Below, one piece after another: positions 7,748 through 47,495 of a stretch of DNA of 64,000 nucleotides. Position numbers and translations under genes: made by a program. This DNA comes from Octopus vulgaris (Eukaryota). The notes beneath the pieces are model-generated. The model searched no databases, was not told the DNA's origin, and worked only from the letters and a program-made list of their open reading frames with translations. Each line of letters opens with the position of its first letter. Position 1 is the first letter of the stretch. The stretch spans positions 102,238,001 to 102,302,000 of the forward strand of contig OX597817.1 in NCBI GenBank assembly GCA_951406725.2. The letters are read 5' to 3'.

Positions 7748-8854
7748 ACAACCAATAGTCTAAATCTATTGAAGAACTTATGCAATTTTTCTTATATGAA
7801 TCCATTTTTCTATTAGAAGGATTTTTGATGATAAACAGTGCATCATCCCTATATAAACCACCCCTTATTTCTGGAAATTCTCTATTAAACTTAGGTAAAA
7901 TGTATATCTAACAAAATGAGTTGCCTGAGCGGAATCTGTGGAACCTATAGCGATATCGAAACAGTCAGGTGTCTTTTCTAGACTATAATTTATCATCAAA
8001 CGTTATTATAGATTTTCTGGGTGTTAATACAACTTTTATTTCATTCATAGTCATTTTTGTATTATTCTTAGCAAATATAAGTGCACTATTAAGAACTGTT
8101 GGGTTAATAGATGAGTAATAATCATTAATGTCTACCTGCAAGCATTTACATCTATCTTTCTTATCAATTTTGTTGAACCAACTAATTGCCTCTTGTGTAT
8201 TTGACCATAGTTCCAATTTAATTTTATTCTTCAGTTCATCTATATATTTGTCCATAATAAATTTGCTCAATTTGCCTAGGTCTGATTTAGCTGGGCAAAT
8301 TAATCTCGCGTTAGGGCCTGTTTCAAAATTATCTTTGTGGTCCTTCAAAAATATTCTTGGTCTTAATGGAACAAAAGGTTCCGTCCTATCGTCTGTAGTG
8401 TATACTGTCATTATTCCTTTAGATTCAAGATTTATTGATCTTAGTATATTTTTGTTAACTGTCTTATATTTTCTAGTGATTTCTTTCTTAAGAAGATCAT
8501 GATATAAATCAATATTTAAATTATGAATATTTCCCGTTTTGTCCGAGTGAACTAAAATATTTTAAATCCGAGATTATGGATCTTAATTTCCTCCTCAGAT
8601 GTTCATTCCTAAGTGGGTACTTGACAAATTTAATGTTCCTTACTATATCCCATATATCATCTTCAAAACCCTCCAATGTCTGTTAGGTGGTGGATATCTT
8701 CTTGTTTTAAAATCATTCTTTATTAATTCTGTTTCCATGTTTCTATATTCATTTTTCCCATTATTTTCTTCTAATCTTTTGTCAAAATGGTACGCCTTCC
8801 ATCTTCTTTTTATGACTTGTTTAATTTTATTTATCAATTCCTTCAAGTATTCCT

Positions 8855-18740: not shown

Positions 18741-18952
18741 AAGGCGGCGAGCTAGTAGAATCGTTAGCTCGCTTCACGAAACGCTTATCAGTATTTCGCC
18801 CGTTGCTACGTTCTGAGTTCAAATTTCACCGAGGTCGACTTTGCCTTTTATCATTTCGAGGTCGATAAATTAAGTACCAGTAAAACACTGGGTCAATGTA
18901 ACCGACTAGTCCCCTCCCCAACATTTCAGGCTCTGTGCCTTTGGTAGAAAGG

Positions 18953-18984: not shown

Positions 18985-19259
18985 CATTATTATTATTATC
19001 ACTATTATTATTATTATTATTATTATTATATTTGCTGCGGAACAGGACAGACGTATTCTCAAACGCCCGAAGTAAGTCCTGTTTAAAATTTTAGTTTACA
19101 CCCGTTTGTTACCGTTTTTTTTTTCGTTTAAACAGTGTTCTAGTTTGTTAATAGAAACACCAAGAACCTGTCATGGATTTTCTGTGTTTGTTAAGCCTCT
19201 AGCATGGGTATATTCGGCCCCAAATAAATTCGGTGGGCATTTTAATCCAATATAAATAA

Positions 19260-19471
19260 ACAAGATGGCGGGGAAAAAAACTACCCCTCCTGAAAAAAAT
19301 TTTTTTGAATGCTGAAGATTTCCCTTTTCTTCCCTCCGTTTCTGACATTATAGGAGAGGTGGAGGAGAAAAGGAAGGGTGGAAAAGTTCAAAGTAGTAGC
19401 AGCAGTGAAAACATTGGCGACAGCAGTGACGGCAATGATAGCAGCGACGGCGGCGGCGGAAACAGCGACGT

Positions 19472-19536
<65 letters not shown>

Positions 19537-21020
19537 TTGCAACAGCAACAGCAACGCAATTCAGAACACAATGGATTTTAGCGGAGAAAATAATACTACA
19601 ATTGAAGGTGGTGACGGTGGTGTGGAGAGTGATAACGGTGGAACTGGCCACAACTCCACCACCATCACCACTAACATCTACAGCAGTAACAACAGCAACG
19701 TCGACTACATCAATAACAAAAACAAGAGGTTTGCTCATGTAGCAAATACAAAGAAAGAAATGTTTATAATTCTTCTCGAGAACAAAATTCGAGAACTTTC
19801 AAAAGCAAAAGACATCATCAAAGTTGACGGGGGTAAGGCATCAGTGCTCGTACCTCCCGAAATAATAGGGGCAAAAGAAAAAAAGGATATTTTAAATGCG
19901 TATCACAGAAAAGTAGGAGATCTGAAATAGCTTCCATCAGTCTCGTCGAGAAGGCCCTCAGCGAAATTTTAATAGATGTGACTCACATACAGAGGGGGAG
20001 GAAGTTTTCCAGCATTAAAAGTGAGGACCTCGCTGAAGACACGCAGTGTCACCCCGGTGGACTGAGGAGTGGGTCCTGTATCCCACCTATCTCTCGAAGA
20101 GAACGACGAGAATTAGGGTAAACGGTGTGCCACCAGATGTAAACGACTGGTGGATTGTTGCTTGTGCGGTGCAGGACCCAGAGTCCTTCTTGGATGTAAA
20201 AAAGAAGCAGCAGGGAGAACTGGTTCAGGATCAACTTAGAAATATTCATCTATATGAAACCAGAGAATTTCGTCAATATCTCGGACCTGATCCTGCTGCC
20301 TAACGGGTGGAACTGCATGTCATCGTGTAAAGCAGGAAGCCCAATTGTGACACTTGTTGGGTCACAAGCCATCTGAGATCCTTCCGCCTCCAAAAGTCAG
20401 GGGCTGCGCGGCAACACCTGCAGCCTACAGCAACCTCCAACAACAAATACCTTTTAATAGAACTGCAGCCTCACCCACAATAACATCAACAGAGCTACAT
20501 GAACTCCATACAGCGGGGGAAACCATCCAGAGTATCTGTCTACCAACCTCACTCATCACTCTCTCAAGCATACACTGACACAGGCACACCCACACTATCA
20601 CAGACACACTCACACTCCTATAGACAGACCATACAGACACTATCTACTACACATCCTGTCGTAAGGACGAGGAAAACCCCACAAAGTAATAAAAAAAACG
20701 AAAAGACAAAGGAAACAGAAAACAAAAGAGCCTACATCAACAGACGAAAACACAGAAACCTTCAACACATCGAACATAGACACAGCAAAAACAACACCAG
20801 CACTATCTTCCCCACTATGCCAACCAAAGCCACCAATGCATCTACAAACATACACAGCCCCCAAAAGAGAGCTCACAGTCAATACAGAAACACCGAATTA
20901 TATGCTCGTGAGGAGAACCAACAAAATTTTGTTGACTCTTATAGCCCAAAACAAGCAAATTGAGAGAGAGGGTGCAACTTATGACACCAGTAACCTTAGG
21001 GTTTTGGATAATTTAATGTA
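19260..21020 (+). pseudogene. Tx1 ORF1 (gag-like), frameshifted
   Basis: PTYLSKRTTRIRVNGVPP, knuckle PNCDTCWVTSHLRSF(R) at ~20341, and a low-complexity T/K/P tail. Confidence 0.75.
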
Positions 21021-21203
21021 AATTCGGTTACCCCTCACACTATAGAATGAAATTGAGAGGGACTTCCCGCAAGACGTTGGAAGACCAAACGTCCGCGCCA
21101 CCAAGAGGCATTTAGCCGGCTTTTCAGAGGCACCATATCCAGAACCCGGGTCACCGGGCTGCCAACAGCATATTTTTCTTTTCCTCAGCCTTTTCGAGCC
21201 GTC

Positions 21204-24200
21204 ATGGCGATTGTCAAAGTGGGCTGCATAAATGTTCGCGGCCTGAGGTCACTCGCTCAATGACTTCAGGTAGCTAGGTGTGGATTTGATAGCAACCAAT
21301 AAAACCAGGATTTCCGACACTCGCGATCTTGCACCCAATATTCGACGTAATGGGAGGCAGAGTAGTAGCACTGTTTAGGAAAGGCCTGAATCTCGAAGCT
21401 CGGACGATTTTCCTGGATCCGGGGGTAAATTGGTGGTCCTGGACGTGAGCGACATGAAGGTGGAGCCTTTAGACTAGTCGTTCTTTATGCCCCCACGGGG
21501 GCGGGCCAGCCAGATTTCTTCAGACGTTTATAGGTTTTCGTTGAGACGTCACGCTCTTTAATGTTAGTGAGTGACTGGAACGCCATCTTGGACGCACGCC
21601 TGGATAGGGTGGGGAGAGGTGATAGGAGAAGGGAGTAAAAGTCTCACAAACCTGCTCAGTCGTTTTCAGTTGGCTGACAGGTACCGACTGGATTTCCCGA
21701 ATGTGCCAATGTGGACATGGGCGAACCGCATCAAGTCTTCTAGATCGTTCCTACATAGAGTATTATGTAGGCCTGCAGATAGTAGTATAAGTTGTCCACG
21801 TTTCAAAGTCGTCGGCCACACGGACCATAAATTTGTGATTTGCACGGTCAACATAGATAGGATCCATAGGTAGAGCCCTGGATACTGGAAGTTGAACACG
21901 TCCTTCCCGGCGCGCCAAGCTTTCAGAGACCGGGTTAGCGAGTAAGTCCATCGAGAACTGATGAGCGCAATCGTCAACAGCCGTTGCGGATAGCCCTGGA
22001 AAGGACTATTAGAATAGAGGCGGTAAGTTTTAGTAAGGAAGCGTGCACTGAGATGGGAGGGATGAAAGCCGTTCGCTGGGCCTGGGTGGTAGAGGCGCTT
22101 CGTGGAAACAAAGCAAGAATTTGCTCTTTGGCGAACTGTGATGGGTGCATGATAACCGAGTCAAAGCAAATGTATGCGGAATTTCAGTGGTACTTCGCCG
22201 AACTGTATGGGACGCGCGGTGGTTCTGGGACAGTGGTGGATTTCACCTCCTATCTCAGTGGAATGCTGCGCTTCCCGGGCAGAGATGCGGAGTCCTGCGA
22301 AATACCGATAACAGTTGAAGATATACAGAATGCGATGAAGGCCTGCGCAAGAGAGAAGTCACTGGAGCGAGATGGTCTGCCCTTCGAGCCTTATTTTTAT
22401 ACATCAGACTTGTCAGGTGGTCTCTTGGCAGACGTCTATCAAAATTGGCAGCAGAACGGGAGAACTCCCAGTGCTGTGAGGCGTGGAATGGTGGTGCTGT
22501 TGAAGAAGGACCCGAACAAGGGGGACCAATTAGATAATTTTAGGCCTATAACTCTGCTGAATGCAGATTATAAGATTTTGGCCAAGGTGCTAGCCAAGAG
22601 GTTGGCCTTGTCGATAAGCTGGTTGGTGACGAGCAGACATGCGCTATCCCAAACAACCTATCCATGACAACCTCCACCTCACACGCAACATCATAGATAG
22701 GATGGATAAGGAACCTGGCATGGGTGGGGTCCTGATCAATTTGGATCAGTCGAAACCTATTGATAAGGTCGACCACCAATACTCGGAAGCTGTTCTCGCG
22801 GTAGCAGGTTTCGATCCCATTTTCAGAGGCTGGATCGCTGCAGTGTACAGCGACATCTGTTCGGCGGTCAAAGTAAATGGCCACCTTTCAGAATCGCTTA
22901 GCATCGCTTGTTCGGTCCATCAAAGGTGCTCATTCTCGCCTCTTCTGTACGTACTGACTCTCGAATCAGTGCTGCGGTAGCTGGTGGTTTCGGGGAGCAC
23001 TAGAAGGTTCGTGTCGGCTTACGTGGACGACGTCACTGTAATAGTGTCGGAAATCGAGGTGGTCGGCACCGTTCTAAGGGAGTACGAAGCGGTAACAGGA
23101 GCAAGTATCAACCAGGAGAGGTCGGTGGGCTTGCAGCTCAGCACCTGGAGAGGCAAGTCCATGCCAACCGACAGCAAGGTAGAGTATTAGACGGAAGGAC
23201 CGGTTAAATTGCTCGGGGTCTGGTTTAGTCTAGATCTTTAGGTAGATAAGAACTTGGGGGAGGTGACGAATAGGGTTGCCAATCTCACCCAGAAATAGGC
23301 AGAGAGGAAGCTGTCCCTGAAGGGTCGGGTGGAGTCACGAATGAGTACATCGCTTCTGTCATCTACTACTGTCTGACTGTCGTCCCTTGCTCCACTTCGT
23401 GCCTGATAAAGCTGGAACGCTTGCTCTTCCACTTCCTATGGAAGAGATATGTTCCATTCGTCAGATGGTCCAACTGTTGTCAACAGTCGCTGAGTAGAAG
23501 ACTGGGTACACCGTGGCTACCAATGCGCAAGCATGCGCTGAGACTGCGACATTGCCAGAGTTTCCTTAAATGTGAGCAGGTGTGGTCGCCACTCATCAAA
23601 AGGGACTTTCTGCAGCTCGTCTCATTGATGGAGCTACATTTGTGGGTCAAGCGTAGACCAAGAAAGGGCGCTTAGCACTTGGAGTGTCGGCAAGCGCTCA
23701 CGGCCTTCTACCAGTCGGGCAACGCGCTCAGTGGAAATTCCACCATGGTGTTCTATAGGGAATTAGTGGAGGGAAAGAGACCTGACATACTCAGGGAAGC
23801 TCTGGGCGTCGAGAGGGATCAACTAACTGGTCTTTTTCGGAGGACTTTTGGGCCAGGGACTATGGATAACCTCCAGAAATCCCTGACCTAACAGTGCTAC
23901 CGGTTTGAGACAGGCTCTACAGACACGGAAGTGCTGTCATACGGACCTTTCCGAGATGTGCGTAGGGTGATGAAACCGTCTTGCATGCACTCGTCCAGTG
24001 CCCGTGCGTTACTGACCCGTGGAGCTTTGTCGAACAGCTGTCGTTATGTGTAGGACGGATCCGGTTATCAGCCGAGTCCACTGTGAGGATCGCCCCGTCA
24101 CCTTCTTTTGGCCGGGAGGGAAAGGCAGTTTTCCTCTGCCTGGTGGCTATAGTGAAGGAAGAAGTGTGGTGGACAGGGTTTAAAGGACTGAAGACACACT

Positions 24201-24364
24201 TTCCTCTTTGGCCGCGCCCTCATTGACTTTTACAAGTTCCACTTGAAAAGGAAAGTGAGGGTAGAGAGGAAAGTACTGTTCCCACCAGTAAGTTTGTTGA
24301 AAGGTGAGTGAATGTTACGAAGATGGCTCGTGTGAATGGGCCTACTCTGAATATTCGTCTGTAA
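21204..24364 (+). pseudogene. Tx1 ORF2 (APE endonuclease, reverse transcriptase, C-terminal Zn motif), disrupted
   Basis: MAIVKVGCINVRGL, DWNA, TDHK, PGYWKLN, NFRPITLLNADYKILAK, LDQSK..DKVDH, SAYVDDVT and ETVLHALVQC. Confidence 0.92.
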
Positions 24365-24629
24365 GCCGGAGCAGCTGAGGGGAAGGGGGTGCCTACCTGG
24401 CGTGTCCTTAGCAGTCTGGGTGATCAGAGGTACCCTGGTTGTCCCTGGGTGGAACTCACCCCTGTTGGGGAGTTTTGTTGTTTAAATGTTTTTGTTAACT
24501 GATTTTGTTTTTATTGTTTACAAGTTTTTGACTTTTAAGTCCCACTCATCCCTTGTTTTGTATTGTCCCTAATTGTTTTCGTGTTCGGCCCTTTTGGTCA
24601 ATAAAGAAAGGATTATTATTATTAGTAGT

Positions 24630-32663: not shown

Positions 32664-35110
32664 CTCTTTACTTGTTTCAGTCATGTGAATGTGATCATGC
32701 TGGAGCACCGCCTTCAGTCGAGCAAATCGACCCTAGAACTTATTCTTTGTAAGCCTAGTACTTATTCTATCGGTCTCTTTTCGCTACACCGCTAAGTTAC
32801 GGGGACGTAAACACACCAGCATCGGTTGTCAAGCGATGTTGGGGGACAAACACAGGCACCCAAACATATACGCACACACATACAAATATATATATATATA
32901 TATACCTATATACGACGGGCTTCTTTCAGTTTCCGTCTACCAAATCCACTCACAAGGCTTTGGTCGGCCCGAGGCTATAGTAGAAGACACTTGCCCAAGG
33001 TGCCACGCAGTGGGACTGAACCCGGAACTATGTGGTTCGTAAGCAAGCTACTTTATTTCATTAAGATTTGCCATAAAGGCATTACAAAGAGTAGCTTGCG
33101 GGCTGGACATATACATTGATGAAGTGAATGATGAAACAAGGATGATATTGATGAGAGAAGGCAGAAAACGTCCGCCGCTTTTCTGCTTCTCTAAAACATT
33201 GTTCTTTTTTTGCCATCAAAAACGACAATTATTGGACTTAATAGTCCATTACAAATATATATAATAAATTATTCAATATACAAACAATCTATAAGATCAT
33301 TCCTCCTCATCGGAGCCCCCAAGCAAATGACATGCCGCCTGCAGGAAAGCCTGCATCAGCAGGTCGGGACCCGGAAAGAGGAAAGCAAAGTCTTTCTTAT
33401 TACAGGTCACCATGACCTTGAACAGTTCCTTCTGACTCACGACGTCCGCAGCCACCTGCGGAGGCCAGTCTGGACAGTCTATACAAACTGAGTCCAATCG
33501 TTCTCGGCCTGGAAGACCGTCCAAGCACTTCTCGATAGGCCCTTCCCTGAGATAGAAAACGACGGGTTTCACGTCCTCCTCACGGGGAGGGGTCTCAGCC
33601 CACTCTGTTAGTGGCACAATTCCTACTGACAGAGCCTCTCGCTCCGGTGGCTCACGTTCCACCGAAGGGGTTTCGGAACATGCCGTCGGTGCACCAGCAA
33701 CCCCCGGCGATGCCCCGTTTTTCTTTCTTTTCTTTTTTTCCCCCTTTTTCGCGTCGGGAGAGCGAGGTTCCTCCGGCTTGTCCCTCCCGCCGCCACGGGA
33801 TCCATCGGTGGGCAACCATTGTTGTCCACCTTCTTTCTTTTTTCCTTTCGAGGGGGTTACCTCCTCCTCGACTTTTTCTACACCTCCCTGCTTTTTATGC
33901 CCAGGAGGCTCCGTTGGAGGAAAAACATCCTCCTCTATTAATTTTTCCAGTGCTCTTGCATGGTTGTTGGGGCACTTCCTCTTAATGACCCGATTCCTGG
34001 CACAGGTGACACTTGGGGGGGGGCGTCCCTCAAGAGTCACCGGATACCTAGAACCGGCCATCTTTAGAAAATCTGGGAAGACCAGATCTTTGGCTGATTG
34101 GGTCGATAGGGTCAAAATTGCGTTCGACCCCACCCAATCAGCCACAGGAAGCATTCTAACATTCAAGAGCCTGGCTCCGCTGCCACCCAGATCCCGGCGG
34201 ATAGTGTTCTCTATCCACTCAGGCTCTATTCAGGTTGGCAGGCTACTCACCCAGCCTCTTGTCAATTTCCTTCCACGATATGTGGGGAGAAACAAAATTT
34301 TTCCCCTTCCAGGGGCTGACTAGCAAACAAGCTAGTGTCAAACAGTAAACACACTGTTGCAAATTTGACACCCCTTGCAATATACTTGATAGTTGGTAGG
34401 TATTCTGCCAACTCTTTTTCAATTTCGTCCTGAGAGAACACAGTGATGGTGTCGAGTGACTTGGAGTATGTCCTCAACACCACCATTTTCTCATTTCGGT
34501 CCTCTTGGAGGGTACAATTTCCACTCCAGCACAGTAGTGTTCTTTGTTGCCATGATTTAAAACCACAAAGAAACAAAAAAGAGGTCAACAAAAGTTCAAA
34601 TGTTCTAAATAAAAGTTCAGTAATAAACACAAAAAAAGAACGGAAAGAGAAAAGACGAAGGAGGACAGTTCAATCAACGGCAACACAATTCCACAAGTCC
34701 GATACAGGTACTCCAGCTGCAAAAATAGTCCTTCCTGCCTTGGTACTCCTTGGTAATCCAGTAGAAATTCACAGACACGAAGACAATTTTCGTAAACAAA
34801 TTAATTTTTGCATAGGGGCTACGCCTCTTCAAAAAAATACAATTCTCACTGCAAAGTGAGTCTTTATGCATGACCACAGACAGGCAAATGTCTGGAGCAG
34901 AGTGGAGGCTGTTGCTCACCAAAAAATATTAAATACAAGGCAACAAACTCCACTAAGCCCTAAAAAAATACAACAAACACATACCTGTAGTCGAGCCTCA
35001 AAGTTCAATATTTCACGACGAAAGACGTGACATCAAGCAGCCGAAAAAAAGACGTCCGTTTACAACAAGCGTAAGGAAGCTGCTTACCACACAGCCACAC
35101 CTACGCCTAT
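32664..35110 (-). mobile_element. CORE-type SINE (family B) split by the 33054-35069 insertion
   Basis: The SINE stops at aagcaagctactt (33053) and resumes as aaggaagctgcttaccacacagccac (from 35070). Confidence 0.9.
33054..35069 (-). mobile_element. Complete ORF1-only (half-LINE) non-autonomous Tx1-related retroelement
   Basis: 16-bp TSD with 2 mismatches, 5' UTR, disrupted ORF1 (34553-33297) with CHLCQESGH-KRKC knuckle, ~240-bp 3' UTR ending aaataaag, and no endonuclease or RT. Confidence 0.8.
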
Positions 35111-35633
35111 AAACACATTTCTTTAGAAATATATTCTAGAATTGGAAAGGATTTTCAATAGTTGATCGTTAAAGGTGTAACGAAGATCTATTCGAGGATT
35201 CACCCTCCTAGTTTCTTGAGTTGATTATTAAAAAACTCAAAGTTGTTTGGACTTACCTTATCTACTTCTCTATCCTGATTTATGCTTGCGCATGTGTGTG
35301 TGTGTGTACGCGTGTGTGCGTGCGCGCGTGCGTATGTGTACGCGTGCGTGTGTGTGCGTGTGTGAATGTGTGCGGGTGCGTGCACGCACGAGTGTATGAC
35401 TTTATATATGTCAAAGTATTCCTACGTATTTGTATTTTACGCCCATGTATAGAAATATACTATGCCTATTTTAAAATTCAAAAGTTAAAATTTAAAAGTT
35501 TAAAAAAAATTGTTTTACACACACACTCACACACACACACTCTCTCACACACACACTCTCTCTCACTCTCACTCTCTCACATACATATAATATATACATA
35601 CATACATACAGACAGACAGACACACACACACAC

Positions 35634-46033: not shown

Positions 46034-47495
46034 GAACACGTACATCGCGTCCGTCATCTACTACCGCCTGACCGTCGTGCCTTGTCCCGACCCTACCATC
46101 ACCAAACTAGAACGCATTCTCTTTCGCTTCTTGTGGAAAGGATGCGTCCCGATGGTCAGGCGATCCATTTGCTGACAACACCCGTTAAAAGGAGGACTGG
46201 GTATGCCGTGGTTGATGATGCGCAGACACGCGCTGAGACTGCGACATTTCAGGCTCTTCGTAGACGACGGTGAACAGGTGTGGTCGCCGTTTGTGGGGCA
46301 CGCTTTCCTGCAGCTCGTCTCTATGACCGAACTGCAGTCGTGGATCAAAAAGAGGCCGAGGAAGGGCGAATGGCACCGCGAGTGTCGCGTTTTTCTCAAG
46401 CAACTCTGCCGTCCTGGGTCGACCTTGAGTGACTCCATCACAACCAAAGCATTCTATAGGGGATTAGTGGAGGGAGGTACGACGACGAGCTCGGGGCGAA
46501 CCTGGACGTCGACGAGGAATACCTGACCCGCCTGTTCGGGACGACTTTCGGGCCAGGGTCCATGGACAACTTCCAGAGATCCCTGGCCTGGCAGTGCTAC
46601 CGAGAAGCGCTACCCGTTCGGGATAAGCTCTACAGACACGGCTCGAGAAACACGGGGCCGACCTGCCCGAGATGCGGTCAGAGCGACGAAACCGTTCTGC
46701 ACGCACTCGTGCAGTGTCCAACAATTTCCGACCTGTGGGCTTATGTCGAACAACTGCTGTCACGTATGGGACGAGTCGGTTTATCAGCTGAGTCTATCGT
46801 CAATATTGTCACGCCTCCTTCCTTCAAACACGAAGGAAGAGCTATTTTCATCATCCTTGTGGCTATGGCGAAAGAATGTATCTGGTGGACGCGTCTGAAA
46901 GGATTGGAGACAAACACTTTCCTCTCTGGTCAATCTCTCATCAACTTCTTCAAGTACCACTTGAAAAGGAAAGTGAGAGTAGAGAGGCAAGTTTTGTCTA
47001 GCGAATGTTTTAAAAAAAGATGGGTGAATGTAGCAAGGATGGCACGTATGAATGACGAAGCCACCTTGAGCATAATCCTATGAACCCAGAAATTGAAAAC
47101 AGAGGGTTACCCACTTGCAAACAAATGTGGTAACATATAACAATATTGACCGAGGTTACCGTGGTCTTTTTCGTAGGCTTTTCTTCCCACGGATAAACCT
47201 TATCTGCTTCCCCCTCTACACCGTACATCATGACACTGTGATACATGATCCCTATTGATCGTTTTTTTTACTCCTTCCCCTTTTTTCCTCTTTTTTCTTT
47301 TTTTCCTTTTTCTTTTCTTTTGTTTCTTTCCCATTTTTTCTTTTTCTTTTTTCCCTTTTACGATCCCTTTTGATCGAAAACCTACGCCACATTTTTTTTG
47401 TTTGTTTTGTTTGTTTGTTTTGCATCCCCCAAAAGAAAAGCTCTACCTTGTAATTTGTCCTATCTGTGTGCAGCCCTGTGTAGCCAATAAAGAAA
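46032..47495 (+). mobile_element. 5'-truncated, well-preserved Tx1 LINE in a (TATC)n tract
   Basis: Homologous to 23340-24610. GGLGMPWL and CPRCGQSDETVLHALVQC motifs. Ends ccaataaagaaa. Confidence 0.92.

Follow-up and report, generated by a model that had tools for sequence, protein, structure and literature searches.

The 64-kb stretch of Octopus vulgaris DNA analyzed here (the window) harbors, on its minus strand at 33054-35069, a 2,016-bp insert that splits a SINE within the tRNA-like head and that we take, at a probability of about two in three, to be a decayed copy of a multi-copy, HAL1-like, ORF1-only non-autonomous family, mobilized in trans by the ORF2 protein of an autonomous Tx1 element. 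It is a real feature and probably a further kind of ORF1-only LINE. The initial annotation had proposed an ORF1-only lineage that borrows its ORF2, and this stands as a probable rather than a settled reading: the insert has a Tx1-type ORF1, lacks ORF2, was inserted with a target-site duplication (TSD), is not derived from the neighboring Tx1 family and has an octopus ORF1 relative, and k-mers suggest that it exists in more than one copy.

Insertion into a SINE head

BLASTN within the window detects SINE homology at 32667-33053 that resumes at 35071-35109, while the 2,016 bp between the two halves find nothing else in the window (E<=1e-3), in agreement with the earlier description of a SINE split by the insert. 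The features of the insertion site are as follows.

33054-35069, minus strand: inserted element, 2,016 bp
35070-35085, no strand: TSD copy at the element 5' end, with 2 mismatches to the other copy
33038-33053, no strand: TSD copy at the element 3' end; read on the element strand, it opens with the AAG that finishes the terminal AATAAAG
35070-35109, minus strand: 5' head of the host SINE, A-box-like TGGCTGTGTGG, cut off from the SINE body by the insert
32667-33053, minus strand: rest of the host SINE (B-box-like part, body and microsatellite), differing from the majority of window copies at 3/140 positions

The TSD reads CGTAAGCAAGCTACTT (33038-33053) and CGTAAGGAAGCTGCTT (35070-35085), 16 bp that are identical at 14/16 positions, and in the five other SINE copies of the window this stretch is single and continues directly into ACCACACAGCC. 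Because both flanks carry a private C at TSD position 1 that is absent from all five of these copies (0/5), the duplication was made from this very SINE copy, and the 16-bp target duplication claimed at the outset is upheld by the 14/16 identity together with the shared C, judged against the five empty copies. Two mismatches are somewhat many for the age of the insert but compatible with it (P 0.14-0.37). The insert and its host SINE share the minus orientation, with the insert lying between the A-box-like and B-box-like motifs, both called by eye; ARAGORN predicts no tRNA in the SINE. The element is likely complete, its 5' end being judged from one copy. As for the 3' end, earlier described as a terminal aaataaag, AATAAA does stand there, but the last AAG belongs to the TSD, such that the insert proper ends GAAATA and carries no poly(A).

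Anatomy, missing ORF2 and the reading of ORF1

Within the window, the insert can be compared with two other Tx1-type elements, which are given below after its own parts.

34554-35069, minus strand: leader (5' UTR), 516 nt, T-rich (42% T), with four upstream ATGs
33297-34553, minus strand: ORF1, ~418 codons, with breaks near 34503, 34295, 34015 and 33985 and an in-frame TGA at 34232-34230
34295-34501, minus strand: predicted RRM-like domain 1, 53/67 identical to P0001 (an O. sinensis protein, see below)
34020-34298, minus strand: predicted RRM-like domain 2, 71/93 identical to P0001 and 24/91 to P0002 (likewise)
33972-34011, minus strand: CCHC zinc knuckle, split by a frame break
33300-33596, minus strand: C-terminal segment of ORF1, frame open, no recognized relative
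33054-33296, minus strand: trailer (3' UTR), 243 nt, 32% GC, AT-rich, 2-6 stops per frame, no poly(A)
19030-24606, plus strand: decayed full-length Tx1-type element of a different family, with an ORF1 of ~640 codons, an APE-RT-zf ORF2 and a 245-nt 3' UTR ending AATAAAG
46035-47492, plus strand: 5'-truncated Tx1-type element of a third subfamily, ending AATAAAG

The minus-strand layout thus comprises a 516-nt leader (35069-34554), an ORF running from the ATG at 34553 to the TGA at 33299-33297, and a 243-nt trailer (33296-33054), which confirms the 5' UTR, single disrupted ORF and ~240-bp 3' UTR recognized previously. We infer that the leader harbors an internal promoter; an Rfam search of 34500-35200 returned nothing meaningful. 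The leader may also contain an intron (34984-34606, minus strand), with a donor-like CAG|GTATGT at 34984 and, as a candidate acceptor picked by eye near 34606, a pyrimidine tract with TACTGAAC...TTTAG; a scripted acceptor filter passed none. The trailer is not predicted to form a stable 3' structure (z -0.76), and its length compares with the 245 nt of the neighbor's 3' UTR.

Neither APE nor RT had been noted in the insert, and further searches concur. With both neighboring ORF2s as queries, tblastx yields no ORF2 remnant (best E 0.025, unrelated frames), and Pfam recovers no APE or RT family in any of the six frames of the UTRs. The same Pfam search retrieves RVT_1 (E 2e-9) and zf-RVT (E 1.9e-8) from the neighboring Tx1 pieces and misses two neighbor APE pieces, so that short decayed APE remnants could escape it. 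The GC content steps from 0.57 to 0.31 at 33302 (range 33293-33312), coinciding with the stop codon at 33299-33297, and the neighbor Tx1 ORF2 has a GC content of 50-51%. ORF2 is cleanly absent, because GC falls exactly at the stop. In simulated random deletions of at least 1 kb, only 0.03-0.14% strike both ORF2 borders this cleanly while leaving ORF1 whole, in a post hoc simulation that assumes uniform breakpoints. An ATG overlaps the ORF1 stop at 33300-33298 (minus strand; ATGA) and opens a 3-codon frame (MIL*); this candidate remnant of an ORF2 start was rejected, as it is not significantly like the start of the neighbor's APE (P 0.13).

Alignment to P0001 locates one stop and at least four frame breaks in ORF1, and a further compensating frame pair is possible in the linker, in either the insert ORF or P0001. 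The CX2CX4HX4C knuckle pointed out earlier is present (34011-33972); it can, however, be read only across a frame break, and its in-frame part stays below the Pfam cut-off (zf-CCHC_2, E 0.076). The protein is a Tx1-type (type I) ORF1p with a predicted RRM-RRM plus CCHC knuckle arrangement, a label that rests on the ORF1 type and the architecture of the neighbors rather than on an RT tree, the insert having no RT, and that should be read with the occurrence of type I ORF1p also outside Tx1 in mind (PMC5203782, partial text). The AlphaFold model, of low confidence at a pLDDT of 40, suggests two beta-alpha-beta-beta-alpha-beta (RRM-like) repeats. The best PDB structure rows are tandem RRMs at E 0.001 or worse, with none at E<0.001, and the PDB sequence matches are zinc knuckles. 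Atlas look-alikes of P0001 are RRM/ZCCHC3-RBD and zf-CCHC clusters (score 0.90-0.92). Transposase_22, the type II ORF1p family, gives no match, which places the insert outside mammalian HAL1 proper.

The C-terminal segment has no Pfam family, an Atlas best score of 0.78 (below the bar), no similarity to the P0002 C-terminus (P 0.31), a best P of 0.028 among three frames against the end of the neighbor ORF1, and a model with a pLDDT of 45. Its frame is open, with 0 stops in the last 120 ORF1 codons (P 0.0065 by shuffles) and 0 in the last 310, as against 13 and 17 in the other frames. One nonsense change is seen where 1-2 are expected at 2-4% drift. Since the stop-free 310 codons and this nonsense count both fit such drift, the source ORF1 was probably open when the copy landed. 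The host SINE itself lies ~2% from its siblings (3/140 positions).

A full scan of 1.84 billion protein representatives produced three matches, P0001 (E 1.2e-53), P0002 (2e-6) and P0003 (2e-4), the first two being Octopus sinensis RefSeq proteins. P0001, the only close relative among these representatives, is the uncharacterized protein XP_029652367 of LOC115225585, a gene with three protein accessions. It has the same start and the same short N-terminus as the insert ORF; the alignment of the two begins at the initial Met (P 0.0005) and extends across both domains and the knuckle, at 76-79% identity in the RRM-like domains. Like the insert ORF, P0001 is damaged: the first knuckle Cys is Phe, and the protein ends at 281 aa without the C-terminal segment. 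LOC115225585 carries a host-gene annotation but resembles a damaged copy from a sister subfamily of the retroelement. P0002 (623 aa) matches the neighbor full-length Tx1 ORF1 at several places (E 1e-12) as well as the insert (tblastn E 8e-13; identity ~25%); it bridges the two, and the insert ORF is therefore a distant ORF1 of the same group. Word-index protein searches gave 0 matches among 3,351 candidates for the window piece and, for P0001, itself alone among 684. Set against proteins of 1,092-3,115 aa, alignment A1 gave 0 of 5,677, which speaks weakly against fusions of ORF1 with ORF2. No relatives turned up among prokaryote genomes or viral contigs, and one metagenome locus (L001), found in the 22 of 64 parts of the metagenome scan covered, was rejected as a chance match in a glycosyltransferase-like bacterial ORF.

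Direct comparison with the neighbor Tx1 ORF1 supports the very divergent homology near 20070 that had been aligned by eye: tblastx within the window gives E 0.002, and the two domains reach shuffle z values of 6.3 and 8.1. Type I ORF1 homology is common to the insert, the element at 19030-24606 and the Tx1 clade (z 6-18). Also shared with the clade (Tx1L, Keno, Kibi, Koshi and crocodilian Tx1; PMC4494074 and PMC5203782, both in partial text) and with the window Tx1 are a TSD of ~16 bp and insertion into another repeat. In contrast to the clade, the insert has no ORF2, and its ORF1 spans ~418 rather than ~620-640 codons, without ~140 N-terminal residues; its C-terminal segment is unrelated to that of Tx1, and the UTRs do not align. 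The leader bears no significant likeness to the Tx1 leader (P 0.39). The trailer is not significantly like either of the two window Tx1 tails (P 0.07-0.76, one comparison having the Tx1a tail offset by 2 nt), whereas those tails resemble each other (P 0.003), and the derivation of the trailer from a Tx1 3' UTR is accordingly unproven. All three Tx1-type elements of the window end in AATAAAG without poly(A), a 7-mer that occurs 34 times on the two strands of the window, and this terminal motif is all that the 3' ends of the insert and the window Tx1 have in common, 2 of about 80 families having been compared.

Copy number and competing origins

Sequencing runs, of unspecified library types, give an indirect view of how often the insert is repeated. 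In 12 of the 24 listed runs (6 studies, 4 organism labels), 27-44% of 199 sampled 31-mers are present in each run, with none reaching half; these runs are the top of a ranking and carry its selection bias, a 2.7-Gb genome is assumed, and the shares count words rather than alignments to the insert. In four small runs (519-699 million letters; 2 studies, 3 samples) the share is 27-37%, nearly equal to that of the deep runs. A single copy would be expected to yield 0.5-0.8% in them if their sizes are raw bases, or 9-11% if they are contig totals, and the observed shares would need 30-49 or 6-10 copies, respectively. The 3' UTR supplies 11% of the words. More than one copy is suggested by the small runs, which exceed both the single-copy expectation and the 11% of the 3' UTR. 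If differences are evenly spread, the best shares of 0.27-0.44 correspond to a divergence of 2.6-4.1%, which suggests several copies, ~3% diverged, with most of the 2 kb repeated and the runs holding the family majority rather than this copy. Of the remaining listed runs, X13-X20 (seven of them presumed to be RNA) have shares of 0.07-0.19 and do not enter the counts, and X21-X24 have shares of 0.00-0.04; no RNA holders are listed.

Common 31-mers fit an ORF1-only family and an autonomous family with one deleted member equally well, and it is conceivable that the insert arose once, or rarely, by internal deletion from an autonomous Tx1 subfamily not seen in the window, its ORF2 having been skipped by a template jump or deleted later and the product never amplified. 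An autonomous parent would be equally expected to leave its 31-mers in other runs, the 80 L1-Tx1 consensus families in O. vulgaris (PMC13282606, partial text) make an unseen parent plausible, and no second ORF1-only copy was found in the window or in the metagenome, prokaryote and viral collections searched. We still regard this origin as unlikely, considering that both breakpoints must meet the ORF2 borders, as so few random deletions do, with a GC step at the stop and no ORF2 remnant, and that the small runs carry more words than the 3' end supplies, whereas in 6-kb LINE families 5'-truncated copies usually dominate. Were the insert a lone deletion copy, it would be ordinary.

Truncation from the other side, whereby the RNA of an autonomous element ended early, cleaved at an AATAAA within a long post-ORF1 spacer, and was inserted by its own or a sibling ORF2, would suit a trailer that ends AATAAA(G) and does not align to the window Tx1 tails. 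Cleavage and polyadenylation should, however, leave a poly(A) tail 10-30 nt downstream of the signal, and this tail is absent; moreover, in the neighbor Tx1 ORF2 follows ORF1 immediately, without a long spacer between them, and the MIL* frame fails to resemble the neighbor APE start significantly, all of which makes such a cut quite improbable. Equally, the UTR-ORF-UTR anatomy with a TSD, an O. sinensis relative whose gene annotation lists three RefSeq protein accessions, and ZCCHC3-type domains among the look-alikes would be in keeping with a processed retrocopy, mobilized once in trans, of a host gene domesticated from an ORF1. L1TD1 is such a domesticated gene in mammals. Yet the insert lacks the poly(A) of a processed pseudogene, its AATAAA running into the TSD, and it ends AATAAAG as the two Tx1 elements do; P0001 is damaged and not conserved, the 1.84 billion representatives include no conserved orthologue in other molluscs, and the words found in the small runs far exceed the yield of a single-copy parent. 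A retrocopy origin is hence very improbable, and the multi-copy ORF1-only family remains the preferred reading.

Proposed mobilization in trans and place among ORF1-only LINEs

For an ORF1-only family, the route to the SINE can be pictured from the observed anatomy, ORF1 homology and absence of ORF2, with transcription and co-assembly modeled on what is proposed for HAL1 and HeT-A (PMC5786205, partial text). An active master copy would be transcribed from a promoter in the 516-nt leader, and its ORF1 protein (predicted RRM-RRM-CCHC) would coat its own RNA and co-assemble with autonomous Tx1 proteins. With an RNA already devoid of ORF2, mobilization in trans is required; only post-insertion deletion avoids it. 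The borrowed endonuclease would nick the SINE head at 5'-CTACTT/ACCA-3', a TT/A site resembling that of the L1 endonuclease. The freed CTT-3' end may then pair with the AAG at the RNA end, a 3-nt match observed in the sequence, and prime reverse transcription, a second nick 16 nt away giving rise to the observed TSD. Subsequently, the copy would have drifted by about 2-4%, acquiring one stop and at least four frame breaks. It is tempting, if doubtful, to go beyond this and see an old, independently evolved parasite of octopus Tx1 that encodes ORF1 alone, has a trimmed N-terminus and a new C-terminal domain, comprises at least two sublineages whose RNA-binding domains are 76-79% identical, recruits ORF2 without a recognizable common 3' tail, and prefers SINE tRNA-like heads at TGGT|AAG.

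The insert works like HAL1 but is not HAL1, its ORF1p not being of type II. HAL1, ~2 kb long and flanked by a TSD, ends in a poly(A) tail and resembles L1 at its 3' end. It carries the vertebrate type II ORF1p (coiled coil-RRM-CTD), whereas the molluscan insert has type I (RRM plus CCHC) and no poly(A). On the preferred reading, both are non-autonomous, derived from the L1 group and encode ORF1p alone (PMC5753468, PMC5786205, partial texts), and HAL1 arose several times in mammals (PMC5753468, partial text). HeT-A (Drosophila) and Ag-Sponge (Anopheles) belong to other clades than the insert. HeT-A inserts specifically at telomeres; its 3' UTR is very long, and its Gag carries CCHC knuckles. 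Like the insert, these two are ORF1-present bipartite non-autonomous LINEs, and their protein is thought to multimerize with that of the autonomous partner (PMC5786205, partial text). The same source names HeT-A (Jockey), HAL1 (mammalian L1) and Ag-Sponge (CR1) as ORF1-present non-autonomous LINEs, three lineages for a kind of element that is rare. Type I ORF1p has been linked to Tx1 in non-mammalian animals (PMC5203782, partial text), and target preferences of the Tx1 clade have been described (PMC4494074, partial text). Most internally deleted LINEs stay low-copy (PMC6740152, partial text). In O. vulgaris, the available text of PMC13282606 reports 80 L1-Tx1 families with no mention of ORF1 or non-autonomous LINEs, and that of PMC10294476 has nothing on ORF1-only or non-autonomous LINEs. 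No ORF1-only Tx1 or molluscan case was found in the literature covered, which lies for the most part outside subscription journals, Repbase Reports and Dfam; the family may already be catalogued.

Should the reading as an old, independent parasite hold, the element would be the first ORF1-only LINE reported to derive from Tx1 and the first reported from a mollusc, and would offer a natural experiment on the way in which ORF1p by itself gets past cis preference. An additional molluscan origin, out of Tx1 and with another type of ORF1p, would show that parasites of LINEs arise repeatedly by retaining the RNA chaperone and shedding the enzymes. A young (~3%) family would further permit tests of selection on ORF1p and of the recruitment of ORF2p without a common tail. 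Such elements are missed by RT-based annotation pipelines.

Several minor observations concern the surroundings of the window's retroelements. On the element strand, TGGT precedes both the insert target (35086-35089, TGGT|AAG) and the possible target of the neighbor Tx1 (18942-18945, TGGT|AGA), a post hoc observation on two sites. The element at 19030-24606 (plus strand) is flanked by two SINE copies and sits in an (ATT)n tail; the end of the left-hand SINE, GCCTTTGGTAGAAAGGATT, is similar to that of the element, CCCTTTTGGTCAATAAAGAAAGGATT, so that AGAAAGGATT... is either a TSD or a tail common to SINE and LINE. An (AGT)n microsatellite (19470-19535, plus strand) in the 5' part of its ORF1 gives a poly-Ser tract in one frame. 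The copy at 46035-47492 (plus strand) lies in an (ATCT)n microsatellite; the end of its ORF2 is open over 207 codons (zf-RVT, E 1.9e-8), and its 3' UTR is 407 nt long. Finally, a 192-codon open frame at 7983-8561 (minus strand) with the RT-like motif VDINDYYSSI appears, by eye, to be a fragment of a Penelope-like retroelement.
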